A stretch of DNA of 64,000 bases from Chloroflexota bacterium (GCA_019637815.1 JAHBUZ010000001.1:271211-335210); one strand, 5' to 3'; shown: positions 1 to 19,205, numbered from the stretch's first letter. The notes: a model not told the origin generated them from the letters alone. A program made the numbers and translations.

Positions 1-1287
1 GCCGTGCGCAGCGAGTGCGGGCACCCGGCCGTCCAGCACGACCAGGTCCGCGCGAGCGCCCACGTCGATGCGCCCCACGGGCGCACCCACCACCGGATCC
101 ATGCTCGCGTCCGTGCCCAGCGCCGCGTCCAGGAGCGCCCGGCCGGTGTGACGACGGATGCCGTCGGAGGCCGCGACGACGTTGCGCCGTCCCTCGCGGA
201 GTCGCTGGCCGAGCTCCAGACAGCGCAGCTCCGTCGCGACGTCCGTGGTGTGATGGCCGTCCGTGCCGATCCCCCATCGTCCGCCGAGCGCGGTGAAGGC
301 AGACAGCGGGAAGAGCCCGTCCGCGAGCGTCGCCTCGGTCATGGGGCAGAGCGCGACGGTCGAGCCTGCTGCGGCCACACCAGCCAGCTCCTCGGTCGTG
401 GCGTGGGTCGCGTGGACCAGGCACCAGTCACGGTCGAGTCCCACCTCGTCGAGCAGCAGCCGGATGGGCGACGCGCCCAGCCGTGCGCGGCACTCGTCCA
501 CCTCCTCGACGCGTTCAGCGACGTGGATGTGCACCGGGCCGCCGCCCGTCGCCCGCCACGCGTCGAGCAGCGCCCGGATCTCGGCCGTGGTCGTCGCCCG
601 CAGGCTGTGGGGTGCCACGCCCCCGGTCACCAGCGGATCATCGCGGTCACGTGCCGCCGCCGCGACGGCCACGACCTCGTCCACGTCGAGCCGGAACCGT
701 TCCTGCTCGGGTCGCAGCGGCGCGCCGATCCCGCCGTGCCGATAGAGGACCGGCAGCAGCGTCAGACCGATGCCCACCGTGCTCGCCGCGTCCACGAGCG
801 CCCACGCCATGGTGCCCGGGTCGGCGAAGACCCGCCCGTCCAGGTCGCGATGGAGGTAGTGGAACTCCCCGACCTGCGTGGAGCCGCCGCGCAGCAGCTC
901 CAGGTAGACCATCGCAGCGATATCCCGGAGCTCGTCCGGCCCGACCTTCGTCGCGAAGTCATACATCGCGCGCCGCCAGGTCCAGAGGTCATCCTGACCG
1001 CCCGGCTGGCGGCACTCCGTCCGCCCGGCGATGGCGCGGTGGAAGGCATGTGAATGCAGGTCGGGGATCCCAGGGATGACGAACCCCTCGACATGCTCGT
1101 CCGGCTGCCACCTGACCGGGGCGACGGCGTGGACCCCCGTGATCAGACCATCGTGGCCGATCTCCAGGTAGCCCGGCGAGGCCCATCCGGTGGGTCGGTG
1201 GAGGTGCTCGACCTGCAATCGCCAGGGATGCGTCAGTGGTTCGATCGAGGCGGGACGACCGGCCTCGAGCACCCCTCCCCACTCCAT
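1..1287 (-). CDS. hutF: Formimidoylglutamate deiminase (HutF-like amidohydrolase); C-terminus cut by the window edge
   Basis: My own reverse-strand translation from the ATG (complement of 1285-1287) gives MEWGGVLEAG...IPGIPDLHSHAFHRAIAGRTE...GPVHIHVAERVEEVDEC...CPMTEATLADG. These are amidohydrolase metal motifs (HSH, HIH) and a HutF-like AFHRA block. The frame stays open to position 1, so it is missing from the ORF track. It is divergent from the hutUHI operon. Confidence 0.8.
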   Translation of the reverse strand, partial: MEWGGVLEAGRPASIEPLTHPWRLQVEHLHRPTGWASPGYLEIGHDGLITGVHAVAPVRWQPDEHVEGFVIPGIPDLHSHAFHRAIAGRTECRQPGGQDDLWTWRRAMYDFATKVGPDELRDIAAMVYLELLRGGSTQVGEFHYLHRDLDGRVFADPGTMAWALVDAASTVGIGLTLLPVLYRHGGIGAPLRPEQERFRLDVDEVVAVAAAARDRDDPLVTGGVAPHSLRATTTAEIRALLDAWRATGGGPVHIHVAERVEEVDECRARLGASPIRLLLDEVGLDRDWCLVHATHATTEELAGVAAAGSTVALCPMTEATLADGLFPLSAFTALGGRWGIGTDGHHTTDVATELRCLELGQRLREGRRNVVAASDGIRRHTGRALLDAALGTDASMDPVVGAPVGRIDVGARADLVVLDGRVPALAAHG

Positions 1288-1332
1288 GCGACGCGTGCCC
1301 TCCTCCTGGTCCGATCGTCACCGGTTGGCACC

Positions 1333-1400
1333 TTGACGGTGATCCACCGTACATGTACTGTCAACCGCTCGTACGGCTGGATGTCGACTGTTGACATGTA
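1333..1400. promoter_or_regulatory. Divergent hutF / hut-operon control region: -35/-10-like hexamers plus palindromes (candidate operator)
   Basis: Locally AT-richer patch in a GC-rich genome. TTGACG (1333-1338), a 17-nt spacer, then TACTGT (1356-1361) on the plus strand. Perfect 10-bp palindrome GTACATGTAC (1349-1358) overlaps the spacer and -10. TGTCAAC (1359-1365) is inverted against GTTGACA (1390-1396). GTCGAC at 1383-1388. Confidence 0.4.
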
Positions 1401-1502
1401 GCCGGGCGATCATGACAGGGACGGCGCGAGGACATCCGATCCGTGATCCGACGCAGCATCGGATCGGTCCGTCTCGCCGAGCTGGTACCGGGAGGATTGC
1501 AC

Positions 1503-2051
1503 GTGGTCGCTCAGGCGGAGGTCCGCACGGTCGTCGAGTCGGTCGATGCCGTGGTCCATCACATCGACGCGGCCCGCGATGCGATCTGGGAGTCGCCGCC
1601 CCAGGAGGTACTGTCGCTCGGTGCGGGCAACGTGCCGCGCGGGACGGGTGCCAAGAACAACTACCTGTCGACGCTCATCTTCGCCGAGAACGAGCTGCGC
1701 ACCCTGACCGACGAGATCCTGTGGTTCGGCTGGGTGACCGCGACGCGGCAGCCCGACCTCGACCTGCGCACGCTCGTGGCGTACATGGACGAGATCGCCC
1801 AGTACAAGGCGAACATGTTCGACTACGTGGGTCTGCCGGAGGGCTGCGAGGTCCTCAAGGAGTACGTCGGGGGCATCCGCATCGCCACCACGATGGAGGA
1901 GTTCGCGCGCCTCACCGAGTCCGCGATGACCTACTTCAACCGACTCCATGGCTGGGTGGACATCGTGTTCCCGTGGGGCCTCGTCAACGGCTTCCATCGC
2001 GTGAACCCGCTCCAGAAGATCGCGGACGCACACCGCGCCGGCCAGGCCTGA
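1503..2051 (+). CDS. Hypothetical protein, first gene of the hut-associated operon (predicted helical; no motif I can name)
   Basis: ORF track gives 1443..2051. An in-frame GTG at 1503 sits 6 nt after GGAGGA (1491-1496), so I prefer 1503. GC3-rich frame, 19 nt upstream of the next gene. Sequence ...NNYLSTLIFAENELRTLTDEILWFGW...MDEIAQYKANMFDY... Confidence 0.65.
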   Translation: MVAQAEVRTVVESVDAVVHHIDAARDAIWESPPQEVLSLGAGNVPRGTGAKNNYLSTLIFAENELRTLTDEILWFGWVTATRQPDLDLRTLVAYMDEIAQYKANMFDYVGLPEGCEVLKEYVGGIRIATTMEEFARLTESAMTYFNRLHGWVDIVFPWGLVNGFHRVNPLQKIADAHRAGQA

Positions 2052-2070
2052 GCAGAGGACCGAACGAGCC

Positions 2071-2499
2071 ATGAAGATCCGGTTCAACCTCGCGGGCGAG
2101 GACGTCGCGGTCATCGAGATCTGGGAGGACAAGGTCCCCCAGCTCGCCGAGAAGATCCGCGAGGCATTGCCCTTCGCGACCTATCTCCAGCACGGCAAGC
2201 TCACCGGCGACCTGCTGCTGATGCAGACCAAGATCCTCGCGGACTGGGAGAACATCTTCTATCCGGATGACCTGGTCGCCGAGAAGCTGGCCACCCACTC
2301 GGAGGTCCGCGGCGCGGTCTCCTACTACGGCCCGCGTCAGCAGATCTCGATCATGTACGGCAACGACATCCCGCCCGAGCCACTGCCGGTCTCGGCGATC
2401 GGCTGGGTGATCGAGGGTGCCGACCAGCTGGAGCTCATCGGCCTGCGGACCTGGCTCGAGCCGGGCATGCGCGTGTGGCTGTCGCTCATCGACGAGTAG
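2071..2499 (+). CDS. Cyclophilin-like-fold protein (DUF3830-like, from memory); function unknown
   Basis: 142 aa: MKIRFNLAGEDVAVIEIWEDKVPQLAEKIREALPF..HGKLTGD...GAVSYYGPRQQISIMYGND...GWVIEG. The overall pattern matches small cyclophilin-like families as I recall them. No HMM search was run. Confidence 0.7.
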   Translation: MKIRFNLAGEDVAVIEIWEDKVPQLAEKIREALPFATYLQHGKLTGDLLLMQTKILADWENIFYPDDLVAEKLATHSEVRGAVSYYGPRQQISIMYGNDIPPEPLPVSAIGWVIEGADQLELIGLRTWLEPGMRVWLSLIDE

Positions 2500-2534
2500 C
2501 AGGAGGTGTCGCCTAGGGGGGAGCACACGACCCG

Positions 2535-4169
2535 GTGTCGGGGGGCCGACGAATGACGGTGATGACCGCGGTCGCGCGAGCGGCACGCTTCGGAGGAAGT
2601 TCCATGCACGCACCAACCAGGACCCACCCGGGTCGGTCGGGCCGCCGATCGTCCGGGGTCCTCGTCGCGGCGGTGTTGGCCGCGACGGCAGCCATCCTGC
2701 CGGGCGCCCAGGTCGCCGCCCAGGACGCCACACCGACCGGCACGCTCCGCGTCGGCATCGCGGCGCTGAGCACGGCCGACACCCTCGATCCGGCGATGGC
2801 CACCACGGCCGGTGGCTACGCCATCGCGCGCCAGCTCTACGACACGCTCGTGGAGTACGGCACCGACGGCGCCGTGAGGCCCCGCCTCGCCGAGTCCATG
2901 ACACCCGGTGAGACCGCTGACATCTGGACCGTCACGCTGCGTGAGGCGACCTGGTCGGACGGCCGACCCGTGACCTCGGACGACGTGATCGCCACCTTCC
3001 AGCGGTGGTTCGACGCGGATGCGCCGCTGCCGCCCGCCAACTCGCTGCCGTTCGTGGACCCCGAGGCCATCACCAGGGTGGACGATCGCACGGTCGAGTT
3101 CCGTCTCAAGTACCCCACCGTCGTGTTCCCCGACGCACTGACATCGCCCCTGGCGGCGATCGTGCCCGCGGACTTCGACCCTGCGGCGCCGGTCGGCTCC
3201 GGTCCCTTCGTGCTCGCACAGCACGACCCGGGTGTCCGCGTCAGCTTCACGGCCAATCCCGGCTACTGGGAGGAGGGCAAGCCCGGCGTCGCCGAGCTGG
3301 AGCTCATCTCGTTCCCGGACAGCACCGCCATGATCAATGCGCTCATCGGCGACCAGGTCGATGTCGCGTCGTCGATGGATCCGAGCCTCCTGCCGCTCGT
3401 CGAGGCGGGCGGGGACGGCTACACCGTCTTCAGCTACCCGACCAGTGGCACCCTCACGTGGCAGATGAACGTGCTTCAGGAGCCGTTCGATGACCCGCTC
3501 GTGCGTGAGGCCTTCCGGCTGGCCGTGGACCGCCAGCAGCTCATCGACCAGGTCTACGTCGGCCACGCGCTCATCGGCAACGACATCTTCTCGCCGTTCG
3601 ATCCGCTCTACAGCAGCGACCTGCCGCAGCGCACCCAGGACGTCGCGCGGGCCCGTGAGCTCCTCGCCGAGGCCGGGTTCCCGGACGGTGTCGATGTCGA
3701 GCTGACGGCAGCGCCCATCCAGCCCACCGCCGTTCGTCAGAACCAGGTGATGGTCGAGCAGGTCGCCGACGCCGGCTTCCGGGTGAACTTCAACCAGGTG
3801 GATGCCGCGACCTACTACGGCGAGGGCTACGGGACCTATCCGCTGTCCCTCTCCTTCTGGGGCCAGCTGGGCATCTTCGACCAGGCGGCCTTCACGATCG
3901 TCAACAACGCCCCGTACAACGCCACCAAGTGGCAGGATGACGAGTACAACGCGCTCTACGAACAAGCGGTCCGCACCGTCGATGACGCGACGCGAGCGGG
4001 GCTCGTCCGCCAGATGCAGCAGATCGAGTACGACCGCGGGCCCTACCTGGTGCCCCTGTTCCTCAATAACCTGAGTGCCTATGACACGAAGGTGACGGGC
4101 TACCAGCCATACCCCAACAACAGCGGTCCGAGTGGCTACAACTTCAAGGACATGCGCATCAGCGAGTAG
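2535..4169 (+). CDS. ABC transporter substrate-binding protein, family 5 (peptide/nickel/opine type)
   Basis: 544 aa. Arg-rich N-terminus followed by hydrophobic VLVAAVLAATAAILPGA (Tat/Sec-like signal). LRVGI...DTLDP...YDTLVEY...W(S)DG.PVTSDDV is typical of SBP_bac_5. The start could instead be an internal ATG (2553 or 2604). Confidence 0.9.
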   Translation: MSGGRRMTVMTAVARAARFGGSSMHAPTRTHPGRSGRRSSGVLVAAVLAATAAILPGAQVAAQDATPTGTLRVGIAALSTADTLDPAMATTAGGYAIARQLYDTLVEYGTDGAVRPRLAESMTPGETADIWTVTLREATWSDGRPVTSDDVIATFQRWFDADAPLPPANSLPFVDPEAITRVDDRTVEFRLKYPTVVFPDALTSPLAAIVPADFDPAAPVGSGPFVLAQHDPGVRVSFTANPGYWEEGKPGVAELELISFPDSTAMINALIGDQVDVASSMDPSLLPLVEAGGDGYTVFSYPTSGTLTWQMNVLQEPFDDPLVREAFRLAVDRQQLIDQVYVGHALIGNDIFSPFDPLYSSDLPQRTQDVARARELLAEAGFPDGVDVELTAAPIQPTAVRQNQVMVEQVADAGFRVNFNQVDAATYYGEGYGTYPLSLSFWGQLGIFDQAAFTIVNNAPYNATKWQDDEYNALYEQAVRTVDDATRAGLVRQMQQIEYDRGPYLVPLFLNNLSAYDTKVTGYQPYPNNSGPSGYNFKDMRISE

Positions 4170-4177
4170 CACGACCT

Positions 4178-4213
4178 CGGCCCGGTCCCGGTCAGCCGAC
4201 CGGGGTCGGGCCG
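4178..4213 (+). terminator. Intercistronic GC-rich stem-loop after the SBP gene (partial terminator or mRNA-stabilising hairpin)
   Basis: A 14-bp stem (4178-4191 pairs with 4200-4213, including 2 G-U pairs) with the 8-nt loop tcagccga. It lies 9 nt after the SBP stop codon, inside the 92-nt gap before the permease gene. No U-tract follows. Confidence 0.4.
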
Positions 4214-4261
4214 GTGTCCCATCCCGCTCACCCGAGCCCGACTCGCCATGACCCCTGACCC

Positions 4262-5344
4262 GTGCCCACGCGTGCCGGACCGTCAGGGCCTTCGCGCGTC
4301 GTGAGCAGCTCGCTGCCCGGGGCGCTCCCCCCGCCACAGGTCCCGCTCGAGCCCACGGCGCCCACCAGCGCGCCATCCGTCCGGGCGCCGCTGCTGCGCT
4401 ACGTCGGACGGCGTGTGGTGTATGGCCTGGTGATGCTCGCGATCGTGTCGGTCGCCGTGTTCGTGTTCACCCAGGCACTGCCCGGCGACGTCGCACGTCA
4501 GGTGCTCGGCCAGACCGCGACCGACCAGCAGATCGAAGCGCTCCGCGCTCGCCTCGGTCTCGACCAACCGTTGCTCACGCAGTATCTCGACTGGGTCCGA
4601 GGGCTCGTCACCCTGGATCTGGGCACCTCGCTCACCTCGGGTCGGGATGTCGTGGAGGTCCTCACGCCCCGCGTCACCGCGTCCGTCCTGCTCGTGGGCC
4701 TGACCGTCCTGGTGCTGGTGCCGCTCGCCTTCCTGCTGGGTGCGGCTGCCGCGATCCGGCCCCATGGCATCGTCGATCGGGTGGTATCCACGATGGTGCT
4801 GGCCATCATCGCGCTGCCCGGCTTCATCATCGCCATCCTGCTGGTCGTGGTCTTCGCCACGAACGTGGTCCGATGGTTCCCGCCGACCTCCATCATCGAC
4901 ACCCGGCTGCCGCTCTGGCAGCAGCTCCACCTGTTCACGCTGCCGGTGCTCGCGCTCGTGCTCGGATCGCTGCCCTACATGACCGAATCCATCCGGACGA
5001 CCCTGCGGGAGGAGCTCGCCTCCGAGCACGTCGCGTGGGCTCGGCTCTCCGGGGTACCCGGCTCCCGGGTGCTGCTGCGGTACGCGGTCCCGAACGCCAT
5101 CGCGCCGACGCTCCAGGTCGCCGGCACGACCCTCATCTACCTCGTGGGCGGCATCGTGGCCGTCGAGACGGTCTTCGCCTTCCCGGGCGTCGGTGCGTCC
5201 CTTGCGGCGGGTGTGGCCAATCGGGACATCCCGGTGGTCCAGGCCATCACGATGCTGCTCGCGCTCGTGGCGCTCGTCATCTATCTCGGCGCGGACATCC
5301 TGGGCATCCTGCTCACGCCGAGACTCCGGACATCGCTCCGATGA
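4262..5344 (+). CDS. ABC transporter permease (DppB/OppB-like)
   Basis: The conserved N-terminus LLRYVGRRVVYGLVMLAIVSVAVFV and multiple TM segments are typical of BPD_transp_1 permeases. The real start is probably downstream of 4262 (GTG at 4301, or a non-canonical codon near 4390). Confidence 0.85.
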   Translation: MPTRAGPSGPSRVVSSSLPGALPPPQVPLEPTAPTSAPSVRAPLLRYVGRRVVYGLVMLAIVSVAVFVFTQALPGDVARQVLGQTATDQQIEALRARLGLDQPLLTQYLDWVRGLVTLDLGTSLTSGRDVVEVLTPRVTASVLLVGLTVLVLVPLAFLLGAAAAIRPHGIVDRVVSTMVLAIIALPGFIIAILLVVVFATNVVRWFPPTSIIDTRLPLWQQLHLFTLPVLALVLGSLPYMTESIRTTLREELASEHVAWARLSGVPGSRVLLRYAVPNAIAPTLQVAGTTLIYLVGGIVAVETVFAFPGVGASLAAGVANRDIPVVQAITMLLALVALVIYLGADILGILLTPRLRTSLR

Positions 5345-6246
5345 GCGAGCGACCGATGGATCTCGTGCTGCCGGTCGCGACCGGGCCGACCGAGCCAAGC
5401 GTGCCGACCGAGCCCTCGACGCCCCGACGGTATCGGTCCGCGCGCGCCAGGGTCGTCGCCGATCGTCGTGCGTGGGTCGGCGCCGCGTGTGTCGTCGTCG
5501 TGATGGTCATCGCGTTCGGCGGGCCACTCGTGACCACGTTCGATCCGGGTGGCTTCGTGGGCCCACCGTTCCAGCGAGCGTCCCCGGAGTTCGTGCTCGG
5601 CCTGGATGCCCTCGGCCGCGACGTCTTCTCGCAGGTGCTCGCCGGCGGCGCGCTGTTCCTGACCGAGGTCGTCCTCGCGACCATCCTGGGCGTGGGCCTG
5701 GGCACCCTGCTCGGCATCGCGCTCGCTGCGGCACCGCGTCGGGTATCCGAGGCGATGCTGACCGTCAACGACACGATCCTCGTGATGCCCCAGATCGTGG
5801 TGGCCCTGCTGGTGCTCACCCGCCTGGGTGCCACGCCGGTGACCCTCACCCTCGTCATCGGCTTCGTGCACATCCCCCAGACCGCACGCGTGGTCATGGC
5901 CGCGACCCAGCGCGTGATCGCCCAGGACTACGTGGCCGCCGCGCTCGGGCTGGGCGTCGGTCGCATCGGTCTCGTGGTCCACGAGATCCTGCCCAACATC
6001 GCGGGCGTCGTGTCGCTCGAGGCGAGCATCCGGCTCGCCATCTCTGCGGTCGTCCTGGCGTCCCTGTCGTACCTCGGGTTCGCCGCATCCGGCGTGGAGT
6101 GGGGTCGGATGATCCACGACAACCAGGGTGGCCTCGCGATCCAGCCCTGGGCGGTCATGGCGCCCGTCATCGTCCTGGGCGTGTTCCTCATCGGTGCGAA
6201 CCTCCTGCGGGACGCCATCGCGCGCGCACTCGCGAGTCACACATGA
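5341..6246 (+). CDS. ABC transporter permease (DppC/OppC-like)
   Basis: ATG at 5341 overlaps the upstream stop (ATGA). MSERPMDL... then TM-rich sequence; the LGLDALGRDVFSQVL motif is typical of DppC. It is in frame within track ORF 4873..6246. Confidence 0.85.
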   Translation: MSERPMDLVLPVATGPTEPSVPTEPSTPRRYRSARARVVADRRAWVGAACVVVVMVIAFGGPLVTTFDPGGFVGPPFQRASPEFVLGLDALGRDVFSQVLAGGALFLTEVVLATILGVGLGTLLGIALAAAPRRVSEAMLTVNDTILVMPQIVVALLVLTRLGATPVTLTLVIGFVHIPQTARVVMAATQRVIAQDYVAAALGLGVGRIGLVVHEILPNIAGVVSLEASIRLAISAVVLASLSYLGFAASGVEWGRMIHDNQGGLAIQPWAVMAPVIVLGVFLIGANLLRDAIARALASHT

Positions 6247-7853
6247 GCGATCCGACCATGGCCCTGCCGTCGACCAGGTCACGGCCCACCGAGGTCCGGG
6301 GCCTGCGCATCACCACGACCACCGGTGGCACGATCATCCCGGCGCTCGACCTGCGGGTCGACCGGGGCAGCATCGTGGGTGTCGCCGGCGAGACCGGCTC
6401 GGGCAAGACCACGCTCGGCCTCGCGCTCCTCGGCTGGCAGCGCCCGGGTCTCGTGCGTGCCTCGGGCGTCGTGCTGCTCGATGACGATGACCTGGGGACG
6501 CTCTCGGGCGAGGGACTCCGGCGCATCCGGGGCCGGCGTATCGCGTACGTGCCGCAGGATCCGGGGACGGCGCTCGACCCGGCGATGCGCATCCGCGACG
6601 CCCTGGGCGAGGTGCTCCGCGCACACGAGGTCACCGACCACGCCGCCCAGCTGGCGCGCATCGGGGAGCTGTTCGGCCAGGTCGGGCTGCCGCACGACGC
6701 CGCGTTCCTGGCCCGCTTCCCTCATCAGCTGTCGGGTGGGCAGCAGCAGCGGGTCGCCATCGCGACCGCGTTCCTGCTCGATCCCGAGGTGGTGGTCATG
6801 GACGAGCCGACCACCGGTCTCGATGCGGCGACGAAGGCGGGCGTCCTGGCGCTCATCCACGACCTCGCGCGTCGTCGCCAGGCGAGCGTGCTGCTCATCA
6901 GCCATGACCTGCGGATGCTGCTCGCGGCCACGGACCGCATCCTCATCATGCGCGACGGCGTCATCGTCGAGGACGCACCGAGCACGGATCTGCCGCGGCC
7001 CGGGATGCATCCCTACACCGAGCAGCTGCTCGCGGCGCTGCCCGACCCCACCGCGCACCGGGTGGCCGATCACGGCAGCACGACGGGGGACGGTCTGGCG
7101 CTCCGTGGGATCACGGCGCGCCATGCGGGTGTCGTCATCACCGACGCCATCGACCTGGTGGTCGCGCAGGGCGAGTGCGTGGCCCTGGTGGGCGAGTCGG
7201 GCAGTGGCAAGACCACGCTCGCTCGATGCATCGCCGGGTTCCACACCGAGTACTCGGGCAGCGTCGAGTGGGATGGGCGCGTGCTGCCACATGGCGTGCG
7301 TGAGCGTGCCCTCGGCGACCTCCGGACCATCCAGTACGTGTTCCAGAACCCGTATGCGTCGCTCAACCCGCGTCGGACGGTGGGGGACACGCTTGCCATG
7401 GCCGCGCGCACCATCCGGGGCGTGGACCGCGCGACCGCGACCGCGGATGCCGGGCGTGCCCTCGATCGCGTGGGCATGGATCGGTCGTTCCTCGCCGCGC
7501 CGCCCCAGGCGCTCTCGGGCGGCCAGCGACAGCGCATCGCGCTCGCCCGAGCCCTCATCGCCCAGCCGCGACTGCTGGTCTGTGACGAGGTGACCTCATC
7601 GCTCGATGTGTCCGTGCAGGCAGGCATCATCGAGCTGCTCATGGACCTGCGCCGCAGCGAGGGGCTCGCGATGCTGTTCATCACCCACGACCTGGCGCTC
7701 GTCAGCTCGATCGCCGCTCGGACGGTCGTGCTCCAGCGCGGTCGGATCGTGGAGCAGGGCCCCACGGCCCAGGTGCTCGATCATCCGGACCATCCGTACA
7801 CCCGGATGCTCCTGAGCCATCACGACGCGACCCAGTCGCGGCAGCCCCGATGA
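6243..7853 (+). CDS. ABC transporter ATP-binding protein with two fused ATPase domains (DppD/DppF-like)
   Basis: ATG at 6243 overlaps the upstream stop (ATGA). Two Walker A motifs ([18 protein letters not shown]), two LSGGQ signatures and two Walker B motifs ([16 protein letters not shown]). Confidence 0.9.
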
Positions 7854-9526
7854 GCGTGGGCACGGGCACCACGGCCCGCATCATCCGCGCCCCGCGTGGC
7901 GCCGAGCTGACGTGTCGCGGCTGGTCCCAGGAGGCGGCCCTGCGGATGCTCATGAACAACCTCGACCCCGACGTCGCGGAGCGGCCAGCGGACCTCGTGG
8001 TCTATGGCGGGACAGGTCGCGCGGCGCGCTCGTGGGAGGCCTTCGACGCCATCGTCCGGGAGCTGCGCACGCTCGCCGATGACGAGACGCTCCTCGTGGC
8101 ATCGGGCAAGCCCGTGGGCGTGTTCCGGACCCACCCCTGGGCACCACGCGTGCTCATCGCGAACAGCAACCTGGTGGGGCGCTGGGCCAACTGGGAGACG
8201 TTCCGGGAGCTGGAGCGAGCCGGGCTCACGATGTACGGCCAGATGACGGCGGGCTCGTGGATCTACATCGGCACCCAGGGCATCCTCCAGGGCACCTACG
8301 AGACGTTCGCGGAGCTCGCTCGGCAGCACTTCGGGGGGACGCTCCGGGGCCGCGTCGTGCTGACCGCCGGTCTGGGTGGCATGGGTGGCGCCCAGCCGCT
8401 CGCGGTGACCATGAACGAGGGCGTGTGCCTCGCCATCGAGGTGGATGCGGAGCGTGCCCGTCGACGCCTGGACATCGGCTATGTCGACCGGATGACCGAC
8501 TCGCTCGACGAGGCGCTGCGCATCGCTCGCGAGGCTGCGGCGGCCGGCCAGGCGCTGTCGATCGCGCTCGTGGGCAACGCCGCGGCGCTGGAGCCCGAGC
8601 TCGTGCGACGCGGTGAACGCTTCGATGCGGTCACCGACCAGACCTCGGCCCATGATTCGCTCGGTGGGTACATCCCGGCGGGGCTGACGCTGGAGGCCGC
8701 CGCCGATCTGCGGACCTCCGATCCAGATGGCTATGTGGCACGTGCGATGGCCTCCATGGCCGACCAGGTGCGGGCGATGCTGGCGCTCCAGGCATCGGGC
8801 GCCGTGACCTTCGACTATGGCAACAACATCCGGGCACAGGCACAGGCCGAGGGTGTCACCGACGCCTTCGCGTTCCCGGGGTTCGTGCCCGCGTTCATCC
8901 GACCGCTCTTCTGCGAGGGCAAGGGCCCCTTCCGCTGGGTCGCCCTGTCCGGTGACCCACGGGATATCGCACGGACCGACGAGGCGATTCTCGACCTGTT
9001 CCCGGACGATCCGGCGCTGCGACGCTGGATCACCATGGCCCAGGAGCGGGTGCCGGTCCAGGGGTTGCCGGCACGCATCTGCTGGCTGGGCTATGGCGAG
9101 CGGGCACGGGCAGGCGCCGCCTTCAACGAGCTCGTCCGGACAGGGGCGGTCCAGGCACCCATCGTCATCGGCCGGGACCATCTCGATGCCGGCTCGGTCG
9201 CGTCGCCCAACCGGGAGACGGAGGCGATGGCCGATGGCTCCGATGCGATCGCGGACTGGCCGCTGCTCAACGCGCTCGTCAACACCGCGGCCGGCGCCAG
9301 CTGGGTGAGCATCCATCACGGCGGTGGCACGGGCATCGGCTTCAGCCAGCACGCGGGCATGGTCGTGGTCGCGGACGGCACCGAGCTCGCCGCGCAACGC
9401 CTGGAACGGGTACTCACCACCGACCCGGGCATGGGTGTCATCCGGCACGTGGATGCCGGCTACGAACGCGCCATCGAGGTCGCACGGGCGCGCGGCGTCC
9501 ACGTCCCGATGCTGTCGCAGCCATGA
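7850..9526 (+). CDS. hutU: Urocanate hydratase
   Basis: 558 aa. ...[41 protein letters not shown]..., full-length urocanase pattern. The start overlaps the ATPase stop (ATGA). Confidence 0.95.
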
Positions 9527-11151
9527 TCGATGGAGCGTCCACCGGGCGCGCTCCCGTCGTGCTCACGGGCGCCGGGCTGACCATCGAGGACGTGGTCGCG
9601 GTCGCGCGCCACGGCGCGCTCGCCCGCCTGGACGACGATGCCCGGACACGCGTGGCCGAGTCCCGAGCCGTCATCGAACGTCTGGTCGCGGCCGGCGAGG
9701 TGGTCTACGGCGTGACCACCGGCTTCGGTGCGCTGGCCACCACGTTCGTGCCACCCGAGCACGCCCAGGACCTCCAGGAGCGGCTGCTGCGCAGCCACGC
9801 GGCGGGGGTCGGTCCGGCGTTCCCGACCGAGGTCGTTCGGGCGATGCTCCTCCTGCGGGCCAACACGCTGGCCCTCGGTCACTCGGGATGTCGCCCGGAG
9901 GTCATCGACCGGCTGTGTGACCTGCTTCGCCTGGGCATCCACCCGGTCGTGCCGGAGCAGGGCAGCGTGGGCGCATCGGGCGATCTTGCGCCACTCGCGC
10001 ATCTCGCGCTGCCACTCATCGGCCGTGGCGAGGTGGAGCTGGACGGTCGGGTGATGCCCGCGTCGGCGGCCCTCGATGCGGTCGGCTTGGCGCCCCTCGT
10101 GCTGGGACCCAAGGAGGGCCTGGCGCTCCTCAACGGGACCCAGATGATGAGCGCCATCGGGGCCTTGCTGCTCGCCGACGCCGACCGGCTGGCGCGCACC
10201 GCCTCCACGGTCGCGGCGCTCTCCGTGGAAGCACTCCTGGGGACCTCGGTCGCGTTCAGCGCCGCGTACCAGCTCGCGCGACCCCACGCTGGGCAGGTGC
10301 GCACGGCCGCTGAGCTCCGCTGGCTGCTCCGTGACAGCTCGCTCCAGGCTGCCCACCGCGCGCTCGATCACCGGGTCCAGGATCCGTACTCGCTCCGCTG
10401 CGTGCCCCAGGTCCACGGCGCGAGCCGGGATGCGCTCGACCACCTGCGACGGGTGCTGGACATCGAGATCAACGCCGCGACGGACAACCCGCTGGTCTTC
10501 CCGGAGGCCGGAGTGGTCCCCGCGGACGCCCTCGCGACGGGGGGCGGCCACGTCATCAGCGGCGGCAACTTCCACGGGCAACCGATCGCCCTCGCCCTCG
10601 ACTTCGCGAAGCTCGCCATCGCGGAGCTGGGCTCCATCAGCGAACGCCGCGTGGCGCTGATGCTCGATCCGCGGCTCAACGAGGGTCTGCCGGCGTTCCT
10701 GGGTGCGTCGTCGGGTCTCGACTCCGGGCTCATGATCCTCCAGTACACCGCCGCCGCGCTCGTGTCCGAGGACAAGGTGCTGGCACACCCTGCCTCTGCG
10801 GATTCGGTGCCCACGTCGGCGAACCAGGAGGACCACGTCTCGATGGGCTCCATCGCGGCACGCCACGCCCGGCGCGTGCTGGAGCATGTCGAGCACATCC
10901 TCGCCATCGAGCTCATCTGCGCGAGCCAGGCGCTCGATCTCCGCCTCGACGGTCATCCGGGGACGCAGCCCGGCGTGGGCGTCCGCGAGGCACACGCCCT
11001 GGCGCGCTCGGTCGTCCCGCGGCTCGAGAGTGACCGCGAGCCCGGGCCGGACATCGCGGCCGCGCTGATGCTCGTGCGCAGTGGCCGGCTGGCCCGTCTC
11101 GCCGATCCGCCCGAGCTGCCACCCGGGCCGTGGCTCGACCTGGGCGTCTGA
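9523..11151 (+). CDS. hutH: Histidine ammonia-lyase
   Basis: 542 aa. The MIO-forming [16 protein letters not shown] motif is present and the layout is HAL/PAL family. The start overlaps the hutU stop. Confidence 0.95.
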
Positions 11152-12332
11152 TGCAGCACGCCATCACGGGACGGGGCCGTCTGCTGCCCATGACCGGTCC
11201 GCCCTCGGGAGATCTCGGGACCATCGATGGTCCATGGATCATCCTCGTGACGGACGGGGTGGTCGTGGAGGTCCGGCCAGGTGGCCTACGCCCCGGGGAC
11301 CCGGAGTCGGTCACCGATGTCGGGGCGGCGCTGTGCACGCCGGGCCTGGTCGATCCGCACACGCATCTCGTGTTCGGTGGCGACCGCAGCGACGAGGCCG
11401 CTGCCCGCGCGCGTGGCGAGCGCTACACGGGCGGCGGCATCCTGCGCACCGTCGCAGCGACCGAGGCGACTCCCGACGACGTGCTGCGGGATGGGCTCCG
11501 CGGACGCCTCGGGCGTGCCATGGCGACCGGCACCACGACCATCGAGGTCAAGTCCGGCTACGGCCTGACCGCTGCTGCCGAGATCCGTCTCCTGCGGCTG
11601 ATCGGGGAGGCGGCGGCACCGCTCCCGCTGCGCGTGGCGCGCACCTACCTGGGGGCCCACGCCGTGCCACCGGGCATGACGCCAGCGTCACAGGCGCAGG
11701 CGGTCATCGACGCGCTCCCGCAGGTCGCGTCCCTTGCGGACCACATCGACGTGTTCTGCGAGCCGGACCTGTTCGATGTGTCGCTCGCGCGATCGATCCT
11801 GCTGGCCGGACGTGCGCACGGCCTCGGCCTGCGGATCCACGCCGACCAGCTCCGACGGTCGGGTGCGCTCTCGCTCGGTGTGGAGCTGGGCGCTCGCTCG
11901 GTGGACCACCTGGAGCAGGCGACGGCCGATGATGCGCGCCTGCTCGCGGACAGTGGCACCGTCGCGACCGTGCTGCCGGGGCCGGCGCTCCTGCTGCGAG
12001 GCGGCCTGCCCCCGGTGCGTGCCCTGTTCGACGCGGGCGCGACCGTGGCCCTCGGCAGTGATGCCAACGCGGGCACGTTCGGCGAGCCGTCGATGCCCCT
12101 CGCCATCGGGCTCGGCGTCATGATCGGATGCTCGGTCGAGGAGGCGTGGTGGGCCGCGACCCGGGGCGCGGCCGCGTCGCTCGGGCTCGCGGACACGGTG
12201 GGCTGTCTCGGGCCCGGCATGGCTGCGGACATCGTGGCCTGGGACGTGGAGCACGAGGGTGCGGCCGCGATGCGACCCGGGGCCATCCGGCCCGTCCGGG
12301 CCTGGTTCGCGGGACGGCCCCGATCGGACTGA
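11151..12332 (+). CDS. hutI: Imidazolonepropionase
   Basis: Amidohydrolase with GLVDPHTHLVFGGDR and ...RIHADQL... motifs. ATG at 11151 shares one nt with the hutH stop (TGATG). The track start at 11130 is the alternative. Confidence 0.9.
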   Translation: MQHAITGRGRLLPMTGPPSGDLGTIDGPWIILVTDGVVVEVRPGGLRPGDPESVTDVGAALCTPGLVDPHTHLVFGGDRSDEAAARARGERYTGGGILRTVAATEATPDDVLRDGLRGRLGRAMATGTTTIEVKSGYGLTAAAEIRLLRLIGEAAAPLPLRVARTYLGAHAVPPGMTPASQAQAVIDALPQVASLADHIDVFCEPDLFDVSLARSILLAGRAHGLGLRIHADQLRRSGALSLGVELGARSVDHLEQATADDARLLADSGTVATVLPGPALLLRGGLPPVRALFDAGATVALGSDANAGTFGEPSMPLAIGLGVMIGCSVEEAWWAATRGAAASLGLADTVGCLGPGMAADIVAWDVEHEGAAAMRPGAIRPVRAWFAGRPRSD

Positions 12333-12354
12333 CGGCGCTGCCACGGGACGGCCG

Positions 12355-12738
12355 CTATGCGATCGGCTCGAGCACGAACCTCCCGTAGGCCACGAACAGC
12401 GCGAGCGCGCCCAGCACCGCGTTGATGATGATGTTGGGATACTCCCGGCGCTGGATGTGCAGCACGATGGCGCCGACCATCACGAGCGCGAGTCCCACGG
12501 CCGCCACCGGCGTGAGCCAGGGCAGCACCCGGGATGCCGCCGGCGCGACCAGCCCGATGGCTCCCAGGATCTCGAGGATGCCGATGATGCGCATCCGCTC
12601 CTGGCCGACCGCGTGCATCCAGGCCATCGGCGGCCGGCGTGCCGCCCGCTCGAAGTCGAAGGCGTGGGAGTAGCCGGCGACCAGGAACGCCAGCGCGAGC
12701 CCGATCTGTACCGCCCACAGGGCGACATCCATGTCCAC
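12355..12738 (-). CDS. DoxX-family membrane protein
   Basis: 127 aa with 4 predicted TM helices and a DoxX-like pattern (ALAFLVAGYSH...GILEILGAIGLV...). Convergent with hutI. Confidence 0.75.
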   Translation of the reverse strand: MDMDVALWAVQIGLALAFLVAGYSHAFDFERAARRPPMAWMHAVGQERMRIIGILEILGAIGLVAPAASRVLPWLTPVAAVGLALVMVGAIVLHIQRREYPNIIINAVLGALALFVAYGRFVLEPIA

Positions 12739-12762
12739 GCCCTCCTTGGTGCGTGTGACCGG

Positions 12763-13407
12763 CTATGTGCCGGTCGATGCCTCCGACGCCTGCTCCAGCG
12801 CGGACAGGAGCACGGAGACCTCCTGCGCACCGGAGACGCCGAAGCGCCGGTCGAACACGAAGAACGGCACCCCTCGGATGCCCAGCTCCGCGGCCAGCCG
12901 CTCGTCCTCGCGTACCGCGGCCCCGAACTCGTCGCTCGCGAGGGTCGCTCGCGCTCGGTCGGCGTCCACGCCGACCTCGCTCGCGAGACGCACCAGCGTG
13001 TCCGGGTCCGAGATCGCGGCACCCTCCGTGAAGTACGCGGCGTGCAGGCGGTCGGTCATCGCGGCGCCCATGCCGAGGCTGTCCGCGAGATGGGACAAAC
13101 GATGGGCATCGAAGGAGTTGCCGGGTCGCGCGATGTCCAGGCGATAGCTGAGCCCTTCGCTCGCCGCGACGTCGGTCACGCGCTGGTTCATGGCGCGTGC
13201 CTGGTCCGCGCTGACGCCGTACTTCGTGGACAGCATCGTCTCCAGGGACTCGTCCGTGGTCGCGGGTCGGCCCGGGTCCAGCTCGAAGCTGCGATACGTG
13301 ACCGTGACGTCGTCACGCTTCCCGGATCGCTCCAGCGCTCGATGGAGCCGCGTCGTGCCGATGTAGCACCACGGGCAGACGACGTCCGACCACACCTCGA
13401 TGTCCAT
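12763..13407 (-). CDS. DsbA/FrnE-family thiol-disulfide oxidoreductase
   Basis: MDIEVWSDVVCPWCYIG... contains the CPWC active site. Length and layout resemble FrnE / 2-hydroxychromene-2-carboxylate isomerase-like DsbA proteins. Confidence 0.85.
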   Translation of the reverse strand: MDIEVWSDVVCPWCYIGTTRLHRALERSGKRDDVTVTYRSFELDPGRPATTDESLETMLSTKYGVSADQARAMNQRVTDVAASEGLSYRLDIARPGNSFDAHRLSHLADSLGMGAAMTDRLHAAYFTEGAAISDPDTLVRLASEVGVDADRARATLASDEFGAAVREDERLAAELGIRGVPFFVFDRRFGVSGAQEVSVLLSALEQASEASTGT

Positions 13408-13496
13408 GACTTACATCGTACACCTGGCCCACGTGCCACGACCGGATCGACCGGGCCGAGTGCTAGGCTGTCGACACGTCCCGCACGAGGTCCCAT

Positions 13497-13856
13497 GTGA
13501 TGCCCGACCAGACCCTCACCACCGACGCCATCGGTCCGACCATCGACCAGGCTCCCACCACGCCCGTCATCGACCCGCAGGCACGTGCCCGCGAGCTCGC
13601 CGTCCTCGACGCGCTGCGCTCGGTGGTGGACCCGGAGATCGGCATGAACGTGGTCGAGCTGGCGCTCATCCGCCAGGTGGTGCTCGGTGACACGCTGACC
13701 GAGGTGCGCATGGTCATGACCACGCCCTTCTGCCCGTACGCCGGCGCCCTCATGCAGCAGGTCAAGGAGGCAGCCGAGGAGGTCGAGGAGCACGAGGTCA
13801 AGGTGACCCTGCTGGCCGAGCGGTGGGACCCCCGCGATGCCGGCTTGATGTGGTGA
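13497..13856 (+). CDS. DUF59 / MIP18-family Fe-S assembly protein (SufT/PaaD-like)
   Basis: VVDPEIGMNVVELALIR...TTPFCPYAG is the signature of DUF59 proteins. Confidence 0.8.
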   Translation: MMPDQTLTTDAIGPTIDQAPTTPVIDPQARARELAVLDALRSVVDPEIGMNVVELALIRQVVLGDTLTEVRMVMTTPFCPYAGALMQQVKEAAEEVEEHEVKVTLLAERWDPRDAGLMW

Positions 13857-13869
13857 GTCGGGTCATCGC

Positions 13870-13919
13870 CCGATGAGCCTGCCCATCCACCGATGAGCCC
13901 CCGGGACCACCGATGAGCC
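13870..13919 (+). repeat. Three direct copies of CCGATGAGCC spaced exactly 20 bp apart; the last overlaps the start codon of the next gene
   Basis: Copies at 13870-13879, 13890-13899 and 13910-13919. The last two extend to CCACCGATGAGCCC. Each copy contains an ATG, and the ATG at 13913 is the predicted start. Confidence 0.6.
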
Positions 13920-14584
13920 CGCGGGCGCGCCGGGACGCGCTCGCAACGAGCGTCGTCGCGACCGGTGCCGGCGATGACGGGACCACGGGCCTCCTGTTCG
14001 GCGGCCGTGTCTCGAAGGACGACCTCGCCGTCGAGGCGTACGGCACGGTGGACGAGACGGTCGCGGCCCTGGGGACCGCGCGGGCAGAGCTGCCCGCCGA
14101 CGATCCGCTGCCCGCCGACGATCCGCTGCCCGCACTGGATGGCCTGGCGCCACTCGTCCTGCGGCTCCAGCGGGAGCTGTTCGTGGCGGGTGCGGAGCTG
14201 GCCACGAACCCGACGGCCACGGACCGGCTCCAGGATGGCGTGACCCGCGTGGACGAGGCGATGCTCGTCGCGATCGAGGCCGATCTCGCCGCGTGGGAAG
14301 CGCGCATCACGATGCCCCGTGAGTTCGTGGTGCCCGGCCAGAGCCGGCTGTCCGCCGCGCTCGAGGTCGCCCGGGTCACCTGTCGCCGCGCCGAGCGACG
14401 GGTCATCACCGCACGCCGTGCGGGGCACCCCACCGGAGAGTGGCTGGTGCCATGGCTCAATCGCGTGGCGGACCTGTTGTGGGTGCTCGCGCGGGCCGCC
14501 GAGCAGGCCGAGGATGCGGGCACGACGGCCGCCATCGTGGGCGAGCGTCGTCGGACCGCGGGTCGTTCTCGGGACGGGCGGTGA
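13913..14584 (+). CDS. ATP:cob(I)alamin adenosyltransferase, PduO type
   Basis: TGAGDDGTTGL..G.RV.KDD..VEAYGTVDE...LQRELF..GAELAT...FV.PG.S..SAALEVAR..CRRAERR matches the PduO/MMAB family. Confidence 0.85.
   Translation: MSPRARRDALATSVVATGAGDDGTTGLLFGGRVSKDDLAVEAYGTVDETVAALGTARAELPADDPLPADDPLPALDGLAPLVLRLQRELFVAGAELATNPTATDRLQDGVTRVDEAMLVAIEADLAAWEARITMPREFVVPGQSRLSAALEVARVTCRRAERRVITARRAGHPTGEWLVPWLNRVADLLWVLARAAEQAEDAGTTAAIVGERRRTAGRSRDGR
14090..14133 (+). repeat. In-frame 18-bp tandem duplication (about 2.4 copies) inside the adenosyltransferase gene
   Basis: ctgcccgccgacgatccg occurs at 14090-14107 and is repeated exactly at 14108-14125. A partial third copy follows at 14126-14133. It encodes LPADDP-LPADDP-LPA. 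Confidence 0.9.
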
Positions 14585-14701
14585 CGCCCGCTCGCGTCAC
14601 ACGTACGGCCCCGGACCATCGAGCGGCGGACGCCTTGTGAGGCGCCGCTAGACTATCCGGAGACCGCCCGGGCCGGGCGGCCGCTCGAAAGGGACCTCAC
14701 G

Positions 14702-15481
14702 GTGTTCAACAACGACCCCAACCGGACGAACCAGTACGGTCAGTCGCAGCCACAGGGCTGGGACCAGCCGTCCGCCGCTCCCAACACGCTCTCTGATGGC
14801 GTCCGTGTCGGCGCAGCGTCCGTCCCCCGCCAGGGCTTCCTGACCGCGAGCTTCGTGTGGATGTTCGTGGGCCTGCTCCTGAGCGCGGGGGCCGGCCTCT
14901 TCGTCATGAACAACGAGCAGGCGCTCCAGCAGGTGGTCAACAACTGGATCATCCTGATCATCGCGGAGCTCGGCCTCGTGCTCGGCCTCAGCTTCCTCAT
15001 CACGCGCCTCAACCCCATGGTGGCACTGGGCGCGTTCTTCGTGTACGCGCTGCTCAACGGCCTGACGCTCGGCGTCATCGTCCTCGCCTACATGGGCACG
15101 ACCGCGGGCGTGTCCGGCGTGGTCACGGCGTTCCTGGGCGCTTCTGCCATCTTCGCGGGCGCCGCCATCTACGGATATGCCACCAAGCGCGACCTGACGA
15201 GTCTGGGCGGCATCCTGTTCATGGGCCTCATCGGCCTCATCGTCGTGATGATCGCCCAGATGTTCCTGTTCCCCGGGGACGCGATGATCAACATCGCCAT
15301 CGGTGTCGTGGGCGTGGTCCTGTTCACGGGTCTCACGGCCTACCACGTCCAGCAGCTCAAGGCGGGCGCGGTCGAGGGTATCAATGCCGATTCCGCGTCG
15401 GTCATGGGCGCGCTCGTGCTGTACCTCGCCTTCGTCAACCTGTTCCTGTTCCTGCTGCGCATCTTCGGCAGCAACCGCTGA
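14702..15481 (+). CDS. Bax-inhibitor-1 / YccA-family membrane protein
   Basis: 259 aa. Gln/Pro-rich N-terminus followed by 7 TM helices; conserved F..V..WM..GL and ...LYL.F.NLFLFLLRI C-terminus. Confidence 0.8.
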   Translation: MFNNDPNRTNQYGQSQPQGWDQPSAAPNTLSDGVRVGAASVPRQGFLTASFVWMFVGLLLSAGAGLFVMNNEQALQQVVNNWIILIIAELGLVLGLSFLITRLNPMVALGAFFVYALLNGLTLGVIVLAYMGTTAGVSGVVTAFLGASAIFAGAAIYGYATKRDLTSLGGILFMGLIGLIVVMIAQMFLFPGDAMINIAIGVVGVVLFTGLTAYHVQQLKAGAVEGINADSASVMGALVLYLAFVNLFLFLLRIFGSNR

Positions 15482-15564
15482 CCGGTGGGCGACCACCGCG
15501 CGTGGCCGCCGTCTCGTCGCCCGAGGACCCTCCGCCGCGTACCATCACGCGGAAGGAGGGTCTC

Positions 15565-16458
15565 GTGGTCGAAGGTACCGACACCGAACGCATCGGTTTC
15601 TGTGGCATGGGCACGATGGGCGCCGCGATGGCGGCGAACCTCGTGCGGACGGGCTTCCGGACGAGCGTCTGGAACCGCACGGCCGGACGGGCGGACGTGC
15701 CCGTCTCGCTGGGCGCCGTCGAGGCCGCCAGCCCGGCGGAGCTCGCGCGGACCTCGGACATCGTGGTCATCTGCGTCTCGGACACCCCGGACGTGGAGGG
15801 GGTCCTGTTCGGCGCGGATGGCGTCGCGGACGGGCTCGCGGCAGGCGCCCTGGTCATCGATTGCTCCACCATCTCGCCGGCGGCCAGTCGCATGTTCGCC
15901 ACGCGCCTCGCGGAGCGCGGCATCGCCTTCGTGGACGCGCCCGTCTCGGGGGGCTCGGAGGGCGCGCTCCACGCGACGCTGACCATCATGGTGGGCGGAG
16001 CGGAGGCGGACGTGGAGCGGGCACGACCGGTGCTCGCGGCGATGGGTCGCTCCGTCACCCGCATGGGCCCCGTGGGGGCAGGTCAGGCGACCAAGGCCGT
16101 CAACCAGGTGATCATCTGCGGGGCGTATCTCGGCGTGGCCGAGGGCATCGTGCTCGCCATCAAGTCGGGTCTCGATCCCGAACAGGTCGTGGAGGCGCTC
16201 TCGGGTGGCGCGGCCCGCTCGTGGGTGCTGGAGAACCGGGCCGGCCGGATGATCACGGACGACTATCCGCCCGGGTTCCGGATCGCGCTCCACCTCAAGG
16301 ACCTGGGGATCGCCCTGGGTCTCGCACGGGAGGTCGGTGCCTCCCTGCCGGTGGCCGGCCTCGCGGCGCAGATCGAGGCCGGTCTGGTGGCGCAGGGTCA
16401 TGGCGACGACGACAACTCGGCGCTGGCGCGGGCCGTCCGCACCTGGTCGGGGCTGTAG
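15565..16458 (+). CDS. NAD(P)-dependent 3-hydroxyisobutyrate / 2-hydroxy-3-oxopropionate reductase family dehydrogenase
   Basis: GTG at 15565 follows GGAAGGAGGG. IGFCGMGTMGAAMAANL is a Rossmann motif, and ...DAPVSGG..GA..ATLTIMVGG... follows. In frame within track ORF 14857..16458. Confidence 0.85.
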   Translation: MVEGTDTERIGFCGMGTMGAAMAANLVRTGFRTSVWNRTAGRADVPVSLGAVEAASPAELARTSDIVVICVSDTPDVEGVLFGADGVADGLAAGALVIDCSTISPAASRMFATRLAERGIAFVDAPVSGGSEGALHATLTIMVGGAEADVERARPVLAAMGRSVTRMGPVGAGQATKAVNQVIICGAYLGVAEGIVLAIKSGLDPEQVVEALSGGAARSWVLENRAGRMITDDYPPGFRIALHLKDLGIALGLAREVGASLPVAGLAAQIEAGLVAQGHGDDDNSALARAVRTWSGL

Positions 16459-16538
16459 GCTCGCTGGACGATCGGGCGGCACCCCTGGACGATCGGGCCG
16501 ATCCGGTGCCGTCCGGCCCTGCCGCACACCGGGTGTTG

Positions 16539-16925: not shown

Positions 16926-16944
16926 CGTCCACGCAGGTACCGGC

Positions 16945-17580: not shown

Positions 17581-17637
17581 CACCTCCCGCCCTGTTCGGG
17601 CACCGTCACGACCGTGGCGTGGAGGGTACCCCCGACG

Positions 17638-17666
17638 TTGACGCTGGGGCGCCCGCGCCGTACACT
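17638..17666 (+). promoter_or_regulatory. Sigma-70-like promoter for the Rrf2-suf-cys cluster
   Basis: TTGACG (17638-17643), a 17-nt spacer, then TACACT (17661-17666), about 100 nt upstream of the Rrf2 start. Confidence 0.4.
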
Positions 17667-17667
17667 C

Positions 17668-18306: not shown

Positions 18307-19201
<895 letters not shown>

Positions 19202-19205
<4 letters not shown>

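Follow-up and report, generated by a model that had tools for sequence, protein, structure and literature searches.

The characterized members of the Pictet-Spenglerase/cucumopine-synthase family are the cucumopine and mikimopine synthases, McbB, StnK2, KslB and the fungal tryptopine synthases (PMC12536604). In the cucumopine and mikimopine synthases the condensation is between L-histidine and 2-oxoglutarate and needs no cofactor (PMC12536604), and tryptophan is the substrate of KslB, McbB and the fungal enzymes (PMC12012969, PMC12536604); in KslB the general base is Glu274, and the E274Q mutant is inactive (PMC12012969). A stretch of 64,000 nucleotides (nt) from a Chloroflexota bacterium (GCA_019637815.1, JAHBUZ010000001.1:271211-335210), referred to here at its full length as the window, carries counterparts of both domains of these enzymes as two separate genes, g1 and g2. 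They head a run of nine tightly packed genes on the + strand (1503-12332) that continues with an ATP-binding cassette (ABC) importer and ends with the histidine-utilization genes hutU, hutH and hutI, with hutF divergent. Judged from sequence and predicted structure, g1 and g2 are two halves of an enzyme of this family with the catalytic residue kept. The operon is probably, by a narrow judgement, one for the uptake of a cucumopine/mikimopine/spinacine-type histidine adduct, its cleavage by a retro-Pictet-Spengler reaction and the subsequent degradation of histidine by the Hut enzymes. What appears to be new is the split PF18631-family enzyme in a catabolic, importer- and hut-linked setting; both domains and the catalytic Glu are those of the family, whose single-polypeptide architecture is absent.

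The cucumopine and mikimopine synthases, McbB (3x27), KslB (9ns6/9k0a), StnK2 and the tryptopine synthases have both domains in common with g1 and g2 taken together; the catalytic Glu and an H-x3-(S/T)-G-(D/E) motif are further features that the two genes share with known Pictet-Spenglerases, and their chemistry would likewise be cofactor-free. The product of g1 (1503..2051, + strand, 182 amino acids (aa)), predicted to be the helical-bundle subunit, matches PF18631 (Cucumopine_C) at 123 bits against a cut-off of 27 (E 1.2e-35); its sequence matches in the PDB are McbB 3x27 and KslB, and the same two proteins are the sole significant fold matches of its AlphaFold 2 model (predicted local distance difference test score, pLDDT, 88). 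The product of g2 (2071..2499, + strand, 142 aa), predicted to be the cyclophilin-like catalytic subunit, is only weakly cyclophilin-like by sequence, with PF04126 at 20 bits against 27 and PDB sequence matches likewise sub-threshold; its assignment therefore rests on the fold search and on a fusion protein, P0132, described below. The AlphaFold 2 model of g2 (pLDDT 84) has KslB as its best PDB fold match (template modeling score 0.75-0.78, E 3e-7), followed by McbB and then by TM1367-type cyclophilin-like proteins. An initial annotation of this DNA had listed the two leading genes as an unknown and a cyclophilin-like gene; the first is a clear PF18631 member, and the second description holds, with a fold of the KslB/McbB type.

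The two genes are separate open reading frames (ORFs) in different frames, 19 nt apart, whereas the characterized family members are single polypeptides; all 25 orthologous loci are split into g1 and g2 in the same way, and compared with known Pictet-Spenglerases the pair (182 + 142 aa) forms a distinct, highly conserved clade. For g1, the GTG start at 1503 is preceded by a GGGAGGA Shine-Dalgarno sequence and is favoured over a start at 1443, as this sequence and homologues of about 180 aa both point to it. The products of g1 and g2 show no homology to peptidases, and they would assemble into a two-subunit enzyme.

A search with the g1 profile against 1.84 billion representative proteins showed the superfamily to be small, with 228 clusters at E<=1e-3 and only 4 at E<=1e-30; its members either stand alone, at about 150-190 aa, or are fusions of about 300-340 aa, which occur with the domains in either order. 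Among these proteins, P0132 (299 aa) has an N-terminal half 40% identical to g1 (E 2e-43) and a C-terminal half 35% identical to g2 (E 2e-25), which makes it a Rosetta-stone fusion whose halves follow each other as g1 and g2 do. The order of bundle and then cyclophilin-like domain is also that of KslB, with which P0132 can be aligned end to end. Through this fusion, H41, T45, G46 and D47 of g2 align with H221, S225, G226 and E227 of KslB, and E103 of g2, which does not vary in sets of 21 and 28 sequences, corresponds to KslB Glu274 both directly and via P0132, the McbB counterpart being Glu97. Other residues of the KslB pocket are replaced: Phe89, which stacks on the indole ring, is an invariant Met in the g1 family (g1 M105, window 1815-1817), and Tyr230, which contacts the tryptophan carboxylate, is Leu in the g2 family (g2 L50, window 2218-2220). 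Since these two and also Arg256 and Lys264 are exchanged, the substrate pocket of g1/g2 differs from that of the tryptophan enzymes. Compared with KslB, in which Phe89, Arg256 and Lys264 are present, the proposed direction of the reaction would also be reversed.

The setting of g1 and g2 was compared across loci found in a genome scan with one genome per species, which gave 25 loci, mostly from Actinomycetota, in which the gene order was read by tblastn with the window proteins as far as each contig reaches. Almost all of the homologues, standalone proteins of about 180 and 142 aa, are from Actinomycetota, and the order g1-g2-substrate-binding protein (SBP)-permease-permease-ATPase is found in all 25 loci, with g1 and g2 always together. 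Genes for histidine utilization lie within 10 kb of this cassette in 12 of the 25, with no fewer than seven arrangements: downstream and fused to it in the window and in the closest relative, the metagenome-assembled genome (MAG) STL-CHL39 (locus L006); as hutH-hutU downstream in Cellulomonas and Protaetiibacter; downstream and convergent, with an arginase-type HutG, in Ruicaihuangia; upstream and co-directional in Propionicimonas and Solirubrobacterales; upstream and divergent in Lacisediminihabitans and Actinomycetales bin_70; and as hutH alone in Dactylosporangium. In most actinobacterial loci the cassette has an orthologous IclR regulator at its flank, and flanking regulators of the IclR or GntR type are taken as typical of catabolic operons. 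The conserved module holds no exporter, no peptidase is kept nearby, and no genes for the catabolism of tryptophan or other amino acids recur beside it. Among 80 hutU loci from other lineages, none had g1/g2 and none had a match to the SBP or the permeases. Gene-neighbourhood conservation had been named in the initial annotation as a check on the link to hut genes, and the result bears the link out, the g1-g2-importer module being invariant and its linkage to hut recurrent. As far as gene order can tell, the module is a self-contained seven-gene unit, repeatedly and independently placed beside histidine catabolism; known synthases lie in a biosynthetic cluster or in transferred DNA (T-DNA), whereas g1/g2 are in every case accompanied by an importer and a regulator of catabolic type, and frequently by hut genes too. 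In a Flexilinea MAG (locus L034, 12800-16430) the cassette looks decayed, with small ORFs in the permease region and the ATPase in two pieces; g1, g2 and the SBP are intact there.

These comparisons bear on the idea that the cassette stands next to hut genes through an accident of horizontal insertion and without any functional link. The cassette was evidently acquired horizontally and insertions land anywhere, but the ATPase gene is joined to hutU by a four-nucleotide ATGA overlap, the fusion is kept in L006 despite hutF/hutI identity of 71%, and hut linkage is independent in 10 further loci from several actinobacterial orders; by a rough estimate, fewer than 1 genome in 100 would have a hut cluster within 10 kb of a locus chosen at random. 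An accident of this kind is scarcely credible, and chance adjacency was rejected on the synteny statistics. Unlikely, at a higher level of probability, is a role in which g1/g2 act on the imported compound without releasing histidine, either as an epimerase (cucumopine to mikimopine) or on a non-histidine adduct such as a tryptophan-derived tetrahydro-beta-carboline, so that the hut linkage would come down to a common regulon or to nitrogen scavenging. KslB, McbB and the fungal enzymes do use tryptophan, more than half of the loci (13 of 25) have no hut genes nearby, and there is no residue-level evidence that fixes histidine as the amino-acid moiety. Against this, it is hut genes, and not those for tryptophan or other amino-acid catabolism, that recur beside the cassette in many arrangements, and the window genes are translationally coupled to hutUHI; the invariant Met in place of the indole-stacking Phe89 of KslB points the same way, if weakly. 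The release of histidine by g1/g2 is therefore the reading that is followed here.

The importer has the full set of a peptide/nickel/opine (PepT) class transporter: SBP_bac_5, OppB/C-type permeases, and OppD/F ATPases with an oligo_HPY tail. The family-5 SBP (Opp/Dpp/Nik/opine-type; 2535 (or ATG 2604)..4169, + strand) matches PF00496 at E 2e-76 and scores below every NCBIfam equivalog cut-off; its possible starts are GTG 2535, ATG 2553/2562 and ATG 2604, the last having the best ribosome-binding site. Its N-terminus has an RR-containing, signal-like segment without a lipobox cysteine, which would be unusual if the donor was a monoderm actinobacterium. The best relative of the SBP among solved structures is the opine-binding protein AgaA (6hlx, E 1e-38), whose ligand is agropinic acid. 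The first permease (4262..5344, + strand; PF19300, PF00528) is OppB/NikB-like, its nearest NCBIfam models being Opp2B and NikB, below cut-off; the second (5341..6246, + strand; PF00528, OppC_N) is OppC/NikC-like; and the fused double ATPase of OppD-OppF type (6243..7853, + strand) is recognized by two ABC_tran stretches and oligo_HPY. For the transporter as a whole, the specific NCBIfam equivalogs Dpp, Opp, Nik, Gsi and Cnt are all below cut-off. AccA imports agrocinopine and CntABCDF staphylopine; the AgaA, AccA, CntABCDF and NikABCDE importers have the same architecture as that of the window (SBP_bac_5, two OppB/C permeases, OppD/F ATPases, oligo_HPY), which differs from them in that its two ATPases form one polypeptide and that it reaches none of the equivalog thresholds. 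The ligand of the SBP would be a histidine adduct.

A transporter of this class could also import carnosine or other His-X peptides, from which housekeeping cytoplasmic peptidases would release histidine, with g1/g2 unrelated or accessory. The PepT class itself and the presence of DppA and GsiB among the SBP matches are in favour of such import; however, the SBP is far below the equivalog cut-offs of peptide SBPs (DppA, 92 bits against 1005), g1/g2 are inseparable from the transporter in 25/25 loci, and they belong to a family that forms C-C/C-N bonds, not to the peptidases, none of which is kept nearby. Import of this kind is very improbable, and the His-dipeptide/carnosine reading was rejected for want of a peptidase in the operon and on the family assignment of g1/g2. 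The initial annotation had argued that the importer brings in a histidine conjugate and not free histidine, naming His-dipeptides such as carnosine or a His-derived opine, and that the two leading genes were the only candidates for the histidine-releasing step. The importer's role is supported by the g1/g2 family, the synteny of the module and the opine-type relative of the SBP; the leading genes are still better candidates as halves of a cucumopine-synthase/Pictet-Spenglerase-type enzyme in an operon with no peptidase; and of the proposed conjugates the opine is favoured, g1/g2 being of the cucumopine/mikimopine synthase family, with the dipeptides disfavoured.

The same transporter invites comparison with metallophore systems, in which case g1/g2 would make a cucumopine-like histidine chelator and the Nik/Cnt-like importer would retrieve its metal complex, as in the staphylopine Cnt system. 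All characterized family members are synthetic in direction, the permeases and the ATPase score best against the nickel/staphylopine (Nik/Cnt) models, if below cut-off, and an imidazole compound with several carboxylates would be expected to chelate metals. The conserved seven-gene module has no exporter, however, and its flanking regulators are IclR or GntR/UTRA and not metal-responsive; recurrent linkage and translational coupling to genes that destroy the precursor histidine would, moreover, be counter-productive. Metallophore synthesis is thus quite unlikely, if not to the degree of peptide import, and uptake and breakdown of a histidine adduct is retained as the function of the operon.

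The nearest precedent for a catabolic role may be found, by analogy, on plasmids. The mikimopine plasmid pRi1724 (L001) has PF18631 loci at 12611-13537 and 14528-15495, one fused and one split. The fused gene (308 aa), at the right end of the rol-gene (T-DNA) region, is read as mis; the split pair, DUF3830 (139 aa) and Cucumopine_C (181 aa), lies at the edge of a catabolic/hut region that has two ABC importers, hydantoinase/oxoprolinase genes, GntR and RpiR regulators and hutF-hutIHGU-hutD. A split pair on Sodalis praecaptivus pHS1 (L004, 11528-12507) adjoins RpiR, hutH, an ABC importer and hydantoinase genes, and Sinorhizobium medicae pMl1 (L002, 11528-12495) also carries one; no rol- or T-DNA-type genes were found in the pHS1 and pMl1 regions examined. 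On pTiAg57, a PF18631 gene (presumably cus) adjoins hutF/hutG/hutD and an importer; that the N-terminal half of its product is a DUF3830 domain was considered and rejected, as this protein has the bundle first. The split pairs are annotated solely as DUF3830/hypothetical, and the literature search found no functional study of them.

In these pairs of pRi1724, pHS1 and pMl1 the same family is thus encoded by two genes among uptake and histidine-utilization genes and outside T-DNA. They differ from the window in that the cyclophilin-like gene comes first, opposite to the g1-g2 order, and in sequence, as their Cucumopine_C protein is only 24-26% identical to g1 and g2 has no tblastn match in the plasmids. 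The agrobacterial cucumopine/mikimopine catabolic regions share the hut linkage with the window, which is an analogy and not membership: the window is chromosomal, its transporter class is different, and no hydantoinase genes are among the neighbouring genes scanned. The literature search found no cucumopine- or mikimopine-degrading enzyme; the work of Hooykaas et al. 2022 on pAtAg67, which reportedly covers the cucumopine catabolic region of that plasmid, may discuss such genes.

We infer which way the reaction runs, what its substrate is and how the operon is regulated, and the sequence of events would be as follows. The likely substrate, a cucumopine-, mikimopine- or spinacine-like tetrahydro-imidazo[4,5-c]pyridine carboxylate, would be brought in by the family-5 SBP and the Opp-type ABC transporter. 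The helical bundle of g1 and the cyclophilin-like g2 with its catalytic Glu would join as a two-subunit enzyme, in which Glu103 would protonate the imidazole carbon, so that the C-C bond breaks to give an iminium; its hydrolysis would then yield L-histidine and a 2-oxo acid or aldehyde, the second product being 2-oxoglutarate if the substrate is cucumopine or mikimopine. HutH, HutU, HutI and HutF would degrade the histidine and so pull the equilibrium, and the urocanate formed would be the expected inducer of a HutC-type repressor encoded beyond hutF. As the synthases condense histidine and 2-oxoglutarate without a cofactor, the reverse reaction needs no extra genes and gives central metabolites, which matches an operon without further enzymes. 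As to the keto-acid moiety, the 2-oxoglutarate-binding residues of KslB are not kept and no accessory enzyme in the operon points to the second product.

Several observations weigh against this proposal. Pictet-Spengler condensations are held to be strongly favourable, which makes the thermodynamics of the reverse reaction uncertain, and the literature search found no PF18631-family enzyme described in the cleavage direction. KslB Arg256 and Lys264, which bind the 2-oxoglutarate carboxylate, correspond to S84 and Q91 in g2, with an invariant R89 nearby. No hut gene is found within the fetched flanks of 13 of the 25 loci, and hutG is absent from the 64-kb window itself. The plasmid systems of pRi1724 and Sodalis, both from Proteobacteria, combine an amino-acid-type ABC transporter with hydantoinase/oxoprolinase genes, in contrast to the Opp-type transporter of the window. 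Finally, the cassette carriers include MAGs from lake, soil, digester and termite gut, where Agrobacterium opines are unlikely, so that the true substrate may not be cucumopine or mikimopine. A general adduct, either of the spinacine type or a product of the many uncharacterized PF18631 synthases, is more likely than an agrobacterial opine.

The layout of the window is consistent with a single transcription unit. The nine co-directional genes between 1503 and 12332, the divergent hutF and the five overlaps (ATGA at 5341, 6243, 7850 and 9523, and TGATG at 11151) are all as first described. The remaining gaps, for which a ceiling of 92 nt had been given, are 19, 35 and 92 nt if each ORF is read at its longest; the ceiling does not hold if translation of the SBP begins at ATG 2604, a start with a better ribosome-binding site that leaves 104 nt after g2. 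A consensus scan found no terminator-like and no sigma-70-like promoter site within the nine-gene run, and an Rfam search of 1-13500 found no riboswitch or leader; the overlaps and the lack of such sites inside the run uphold the earlier view of a single operon, in which all nine genes would be co-transcribed. The unit ends at 12332, as the next genes, DoxX and DsbA, are convergent with hutI. The region 12355-30336 holds ordinary chromosomal genes unlinked to the finding: DoxX, DsbA, an FeS-assembly protein, cobalamin adenosyltransferase and Bax1-I, as well as SIMPL, an ABC ATPase, a class-V aminotransferase, a ThiF/rhodanese protein, RecQ and a branched-chain-type ABC importer.

In the gap between the SBP and the first permease, right after the SBP stop codon, lies a GC-rich hairpin (4177..4214, + strand) with a perfect 17-bp stem and no U tail, predicted by RNA folding at -46.3 kcal/mol (z = -2.15) in a window with a G+C content of about 70%. 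It was not called as a terminator by the consensus scan, and it looks like an intercistronic element that stabilizes the mRNA and raises expression of the SBP over the permeases, not a terminator.

The hut genes belong to the canonical pathway. Urocanate hydratase, hutU (7850..9526, + strand), scores 970 bits against a cut-off of 375 for TIGR01228; histidine ammonia-lyase, hutH (9523..11151, + strand), 663 against 539 for TIGR01225; and imidazolonepropionase, hutI (11151..12332, + strand), the last gene of the unit, 311 against 298 for TIGR01224. Formimidoylglutamate deiminase, hutF (1..1287, - strand), starts at ATG 1287-1285 and is partial, with its 3' end off the window; it scores 418 bits against 413 for TIGR02022 and matches NF006684 at E 3e-134. 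All four are thus shared with canonical hut operons at scores above the NCBIfam equivalog cut-offs, and the window differs from these operons in having six foreign genes between the divergent promoter and hutU, and in the lack of hutG. A tblastn search of the whole 64 kb for HutC-type GntR, IclR, FGase-type HutG and arginase-type HutG found none, which confirms the initial annotation in reporting neither a hutC-type regulator nor hutG inside the window.

As L006 has a GntR/UTRA (HutC-like) gene directly after hutF, the corresponding regulator of the window probably lies, by analogy, just past its left edge. A candidate binding site for it is found in the spacer between hutF and g1, where a 55-nt island (1338-1397, strand unassigned) is nearly identical in L006 and the rest of the spacer has diverged. 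The island contains a palindrome, GTACATGTAC, at 1349-1358 and an inverted repeat, TGTCAAC (1360-1366) and GTTGACA (1391-1397), each arm of which holds an outward-facing TTGACA-like box; the combined motif of GTACATGTAC and inverted repeat is found only in the window and L006 among the fetched loci. From these features, a plausible role for the island is that of operator/promoter, under the control of a HutC-like GntR regulator.

The window is chromosomal DNA, and hutU together with a fumarase/aspartase-family gene at 47.8 kb places the host in Chloroflexota, Candidatus Limnocylindria; the latter gene is 93% identical to that of MAG STL-CHL39, 77-85% to those of other Limnocylindria and at most 60% to those of other phyla. 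The cassette has other affinities, with g1 and g2 83-85% and the SBP 66-68% identical to proteins of Microbacteriaceae and Jiangella, and the hut loci of other Limnocylindria have hutH, hutU and hutI spread out and without a cassette. For these two reasons an origin in Actinomycetota is proposed, where the cassette is native and has its own IclR regulator; most likely, on present sequence comparisons, it was transferred from there and came to lie between hutF and hutU without its IclR gene, whose place was taken by the regulatory context of the hut genes. The fused cassette-hut layout persists in STL-CHL39, where hutF and hutI are only 71% identical to those of the window.

Pictet-Spenglerases are valued as biocatalysts, and the characterized ones are all described as ring-forming. 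It is tentatively proposed, at somewhat less than an even chance, that g1/g2 could represent the first retro-Pictet-Spenglerase to be found in nature. Such an enzyme would act as a C-C lyase of two subunits, without a cofactor, and would free histidine by reopening tetrahydro-imidazopyridine rings. A ring-opening family member would be a new enzymatic activity and, if confirmed, a tool for the deracemization or degradation of alkaloid-like scaffolds; it would also account for the consumption of cucumopine and mikimopine by agrobacteria, supplying the missing catabolic step. The prediction is directly testable in cultured carriers of the cassette, which are Ruicaihuangia caeni, Herbiconiux ginsengi, Herbiconiux wuyangfengii, Jiangella endophytica, Acrocarpospora catenulata, Dactylosporangium sucinum and Microbacterium tumbae. 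If true, adducts of histidine and carbonyl compounds formed by Pictet-Spengler chemistry would be a widespread environmental nutrient for Actinomycetota of soil, lake, digester and gut and, by transfer, for Chloroflexota, their sources being opines made by plant, fungal and bacterial PF18631 synthases or spontaneous compounds such as spinacine. The cassette would then define a seven-gene, horizontally mobile nutrient-acquisition module and indicate that histidine adducts form an unrecognized pool in soils, waters and guts.

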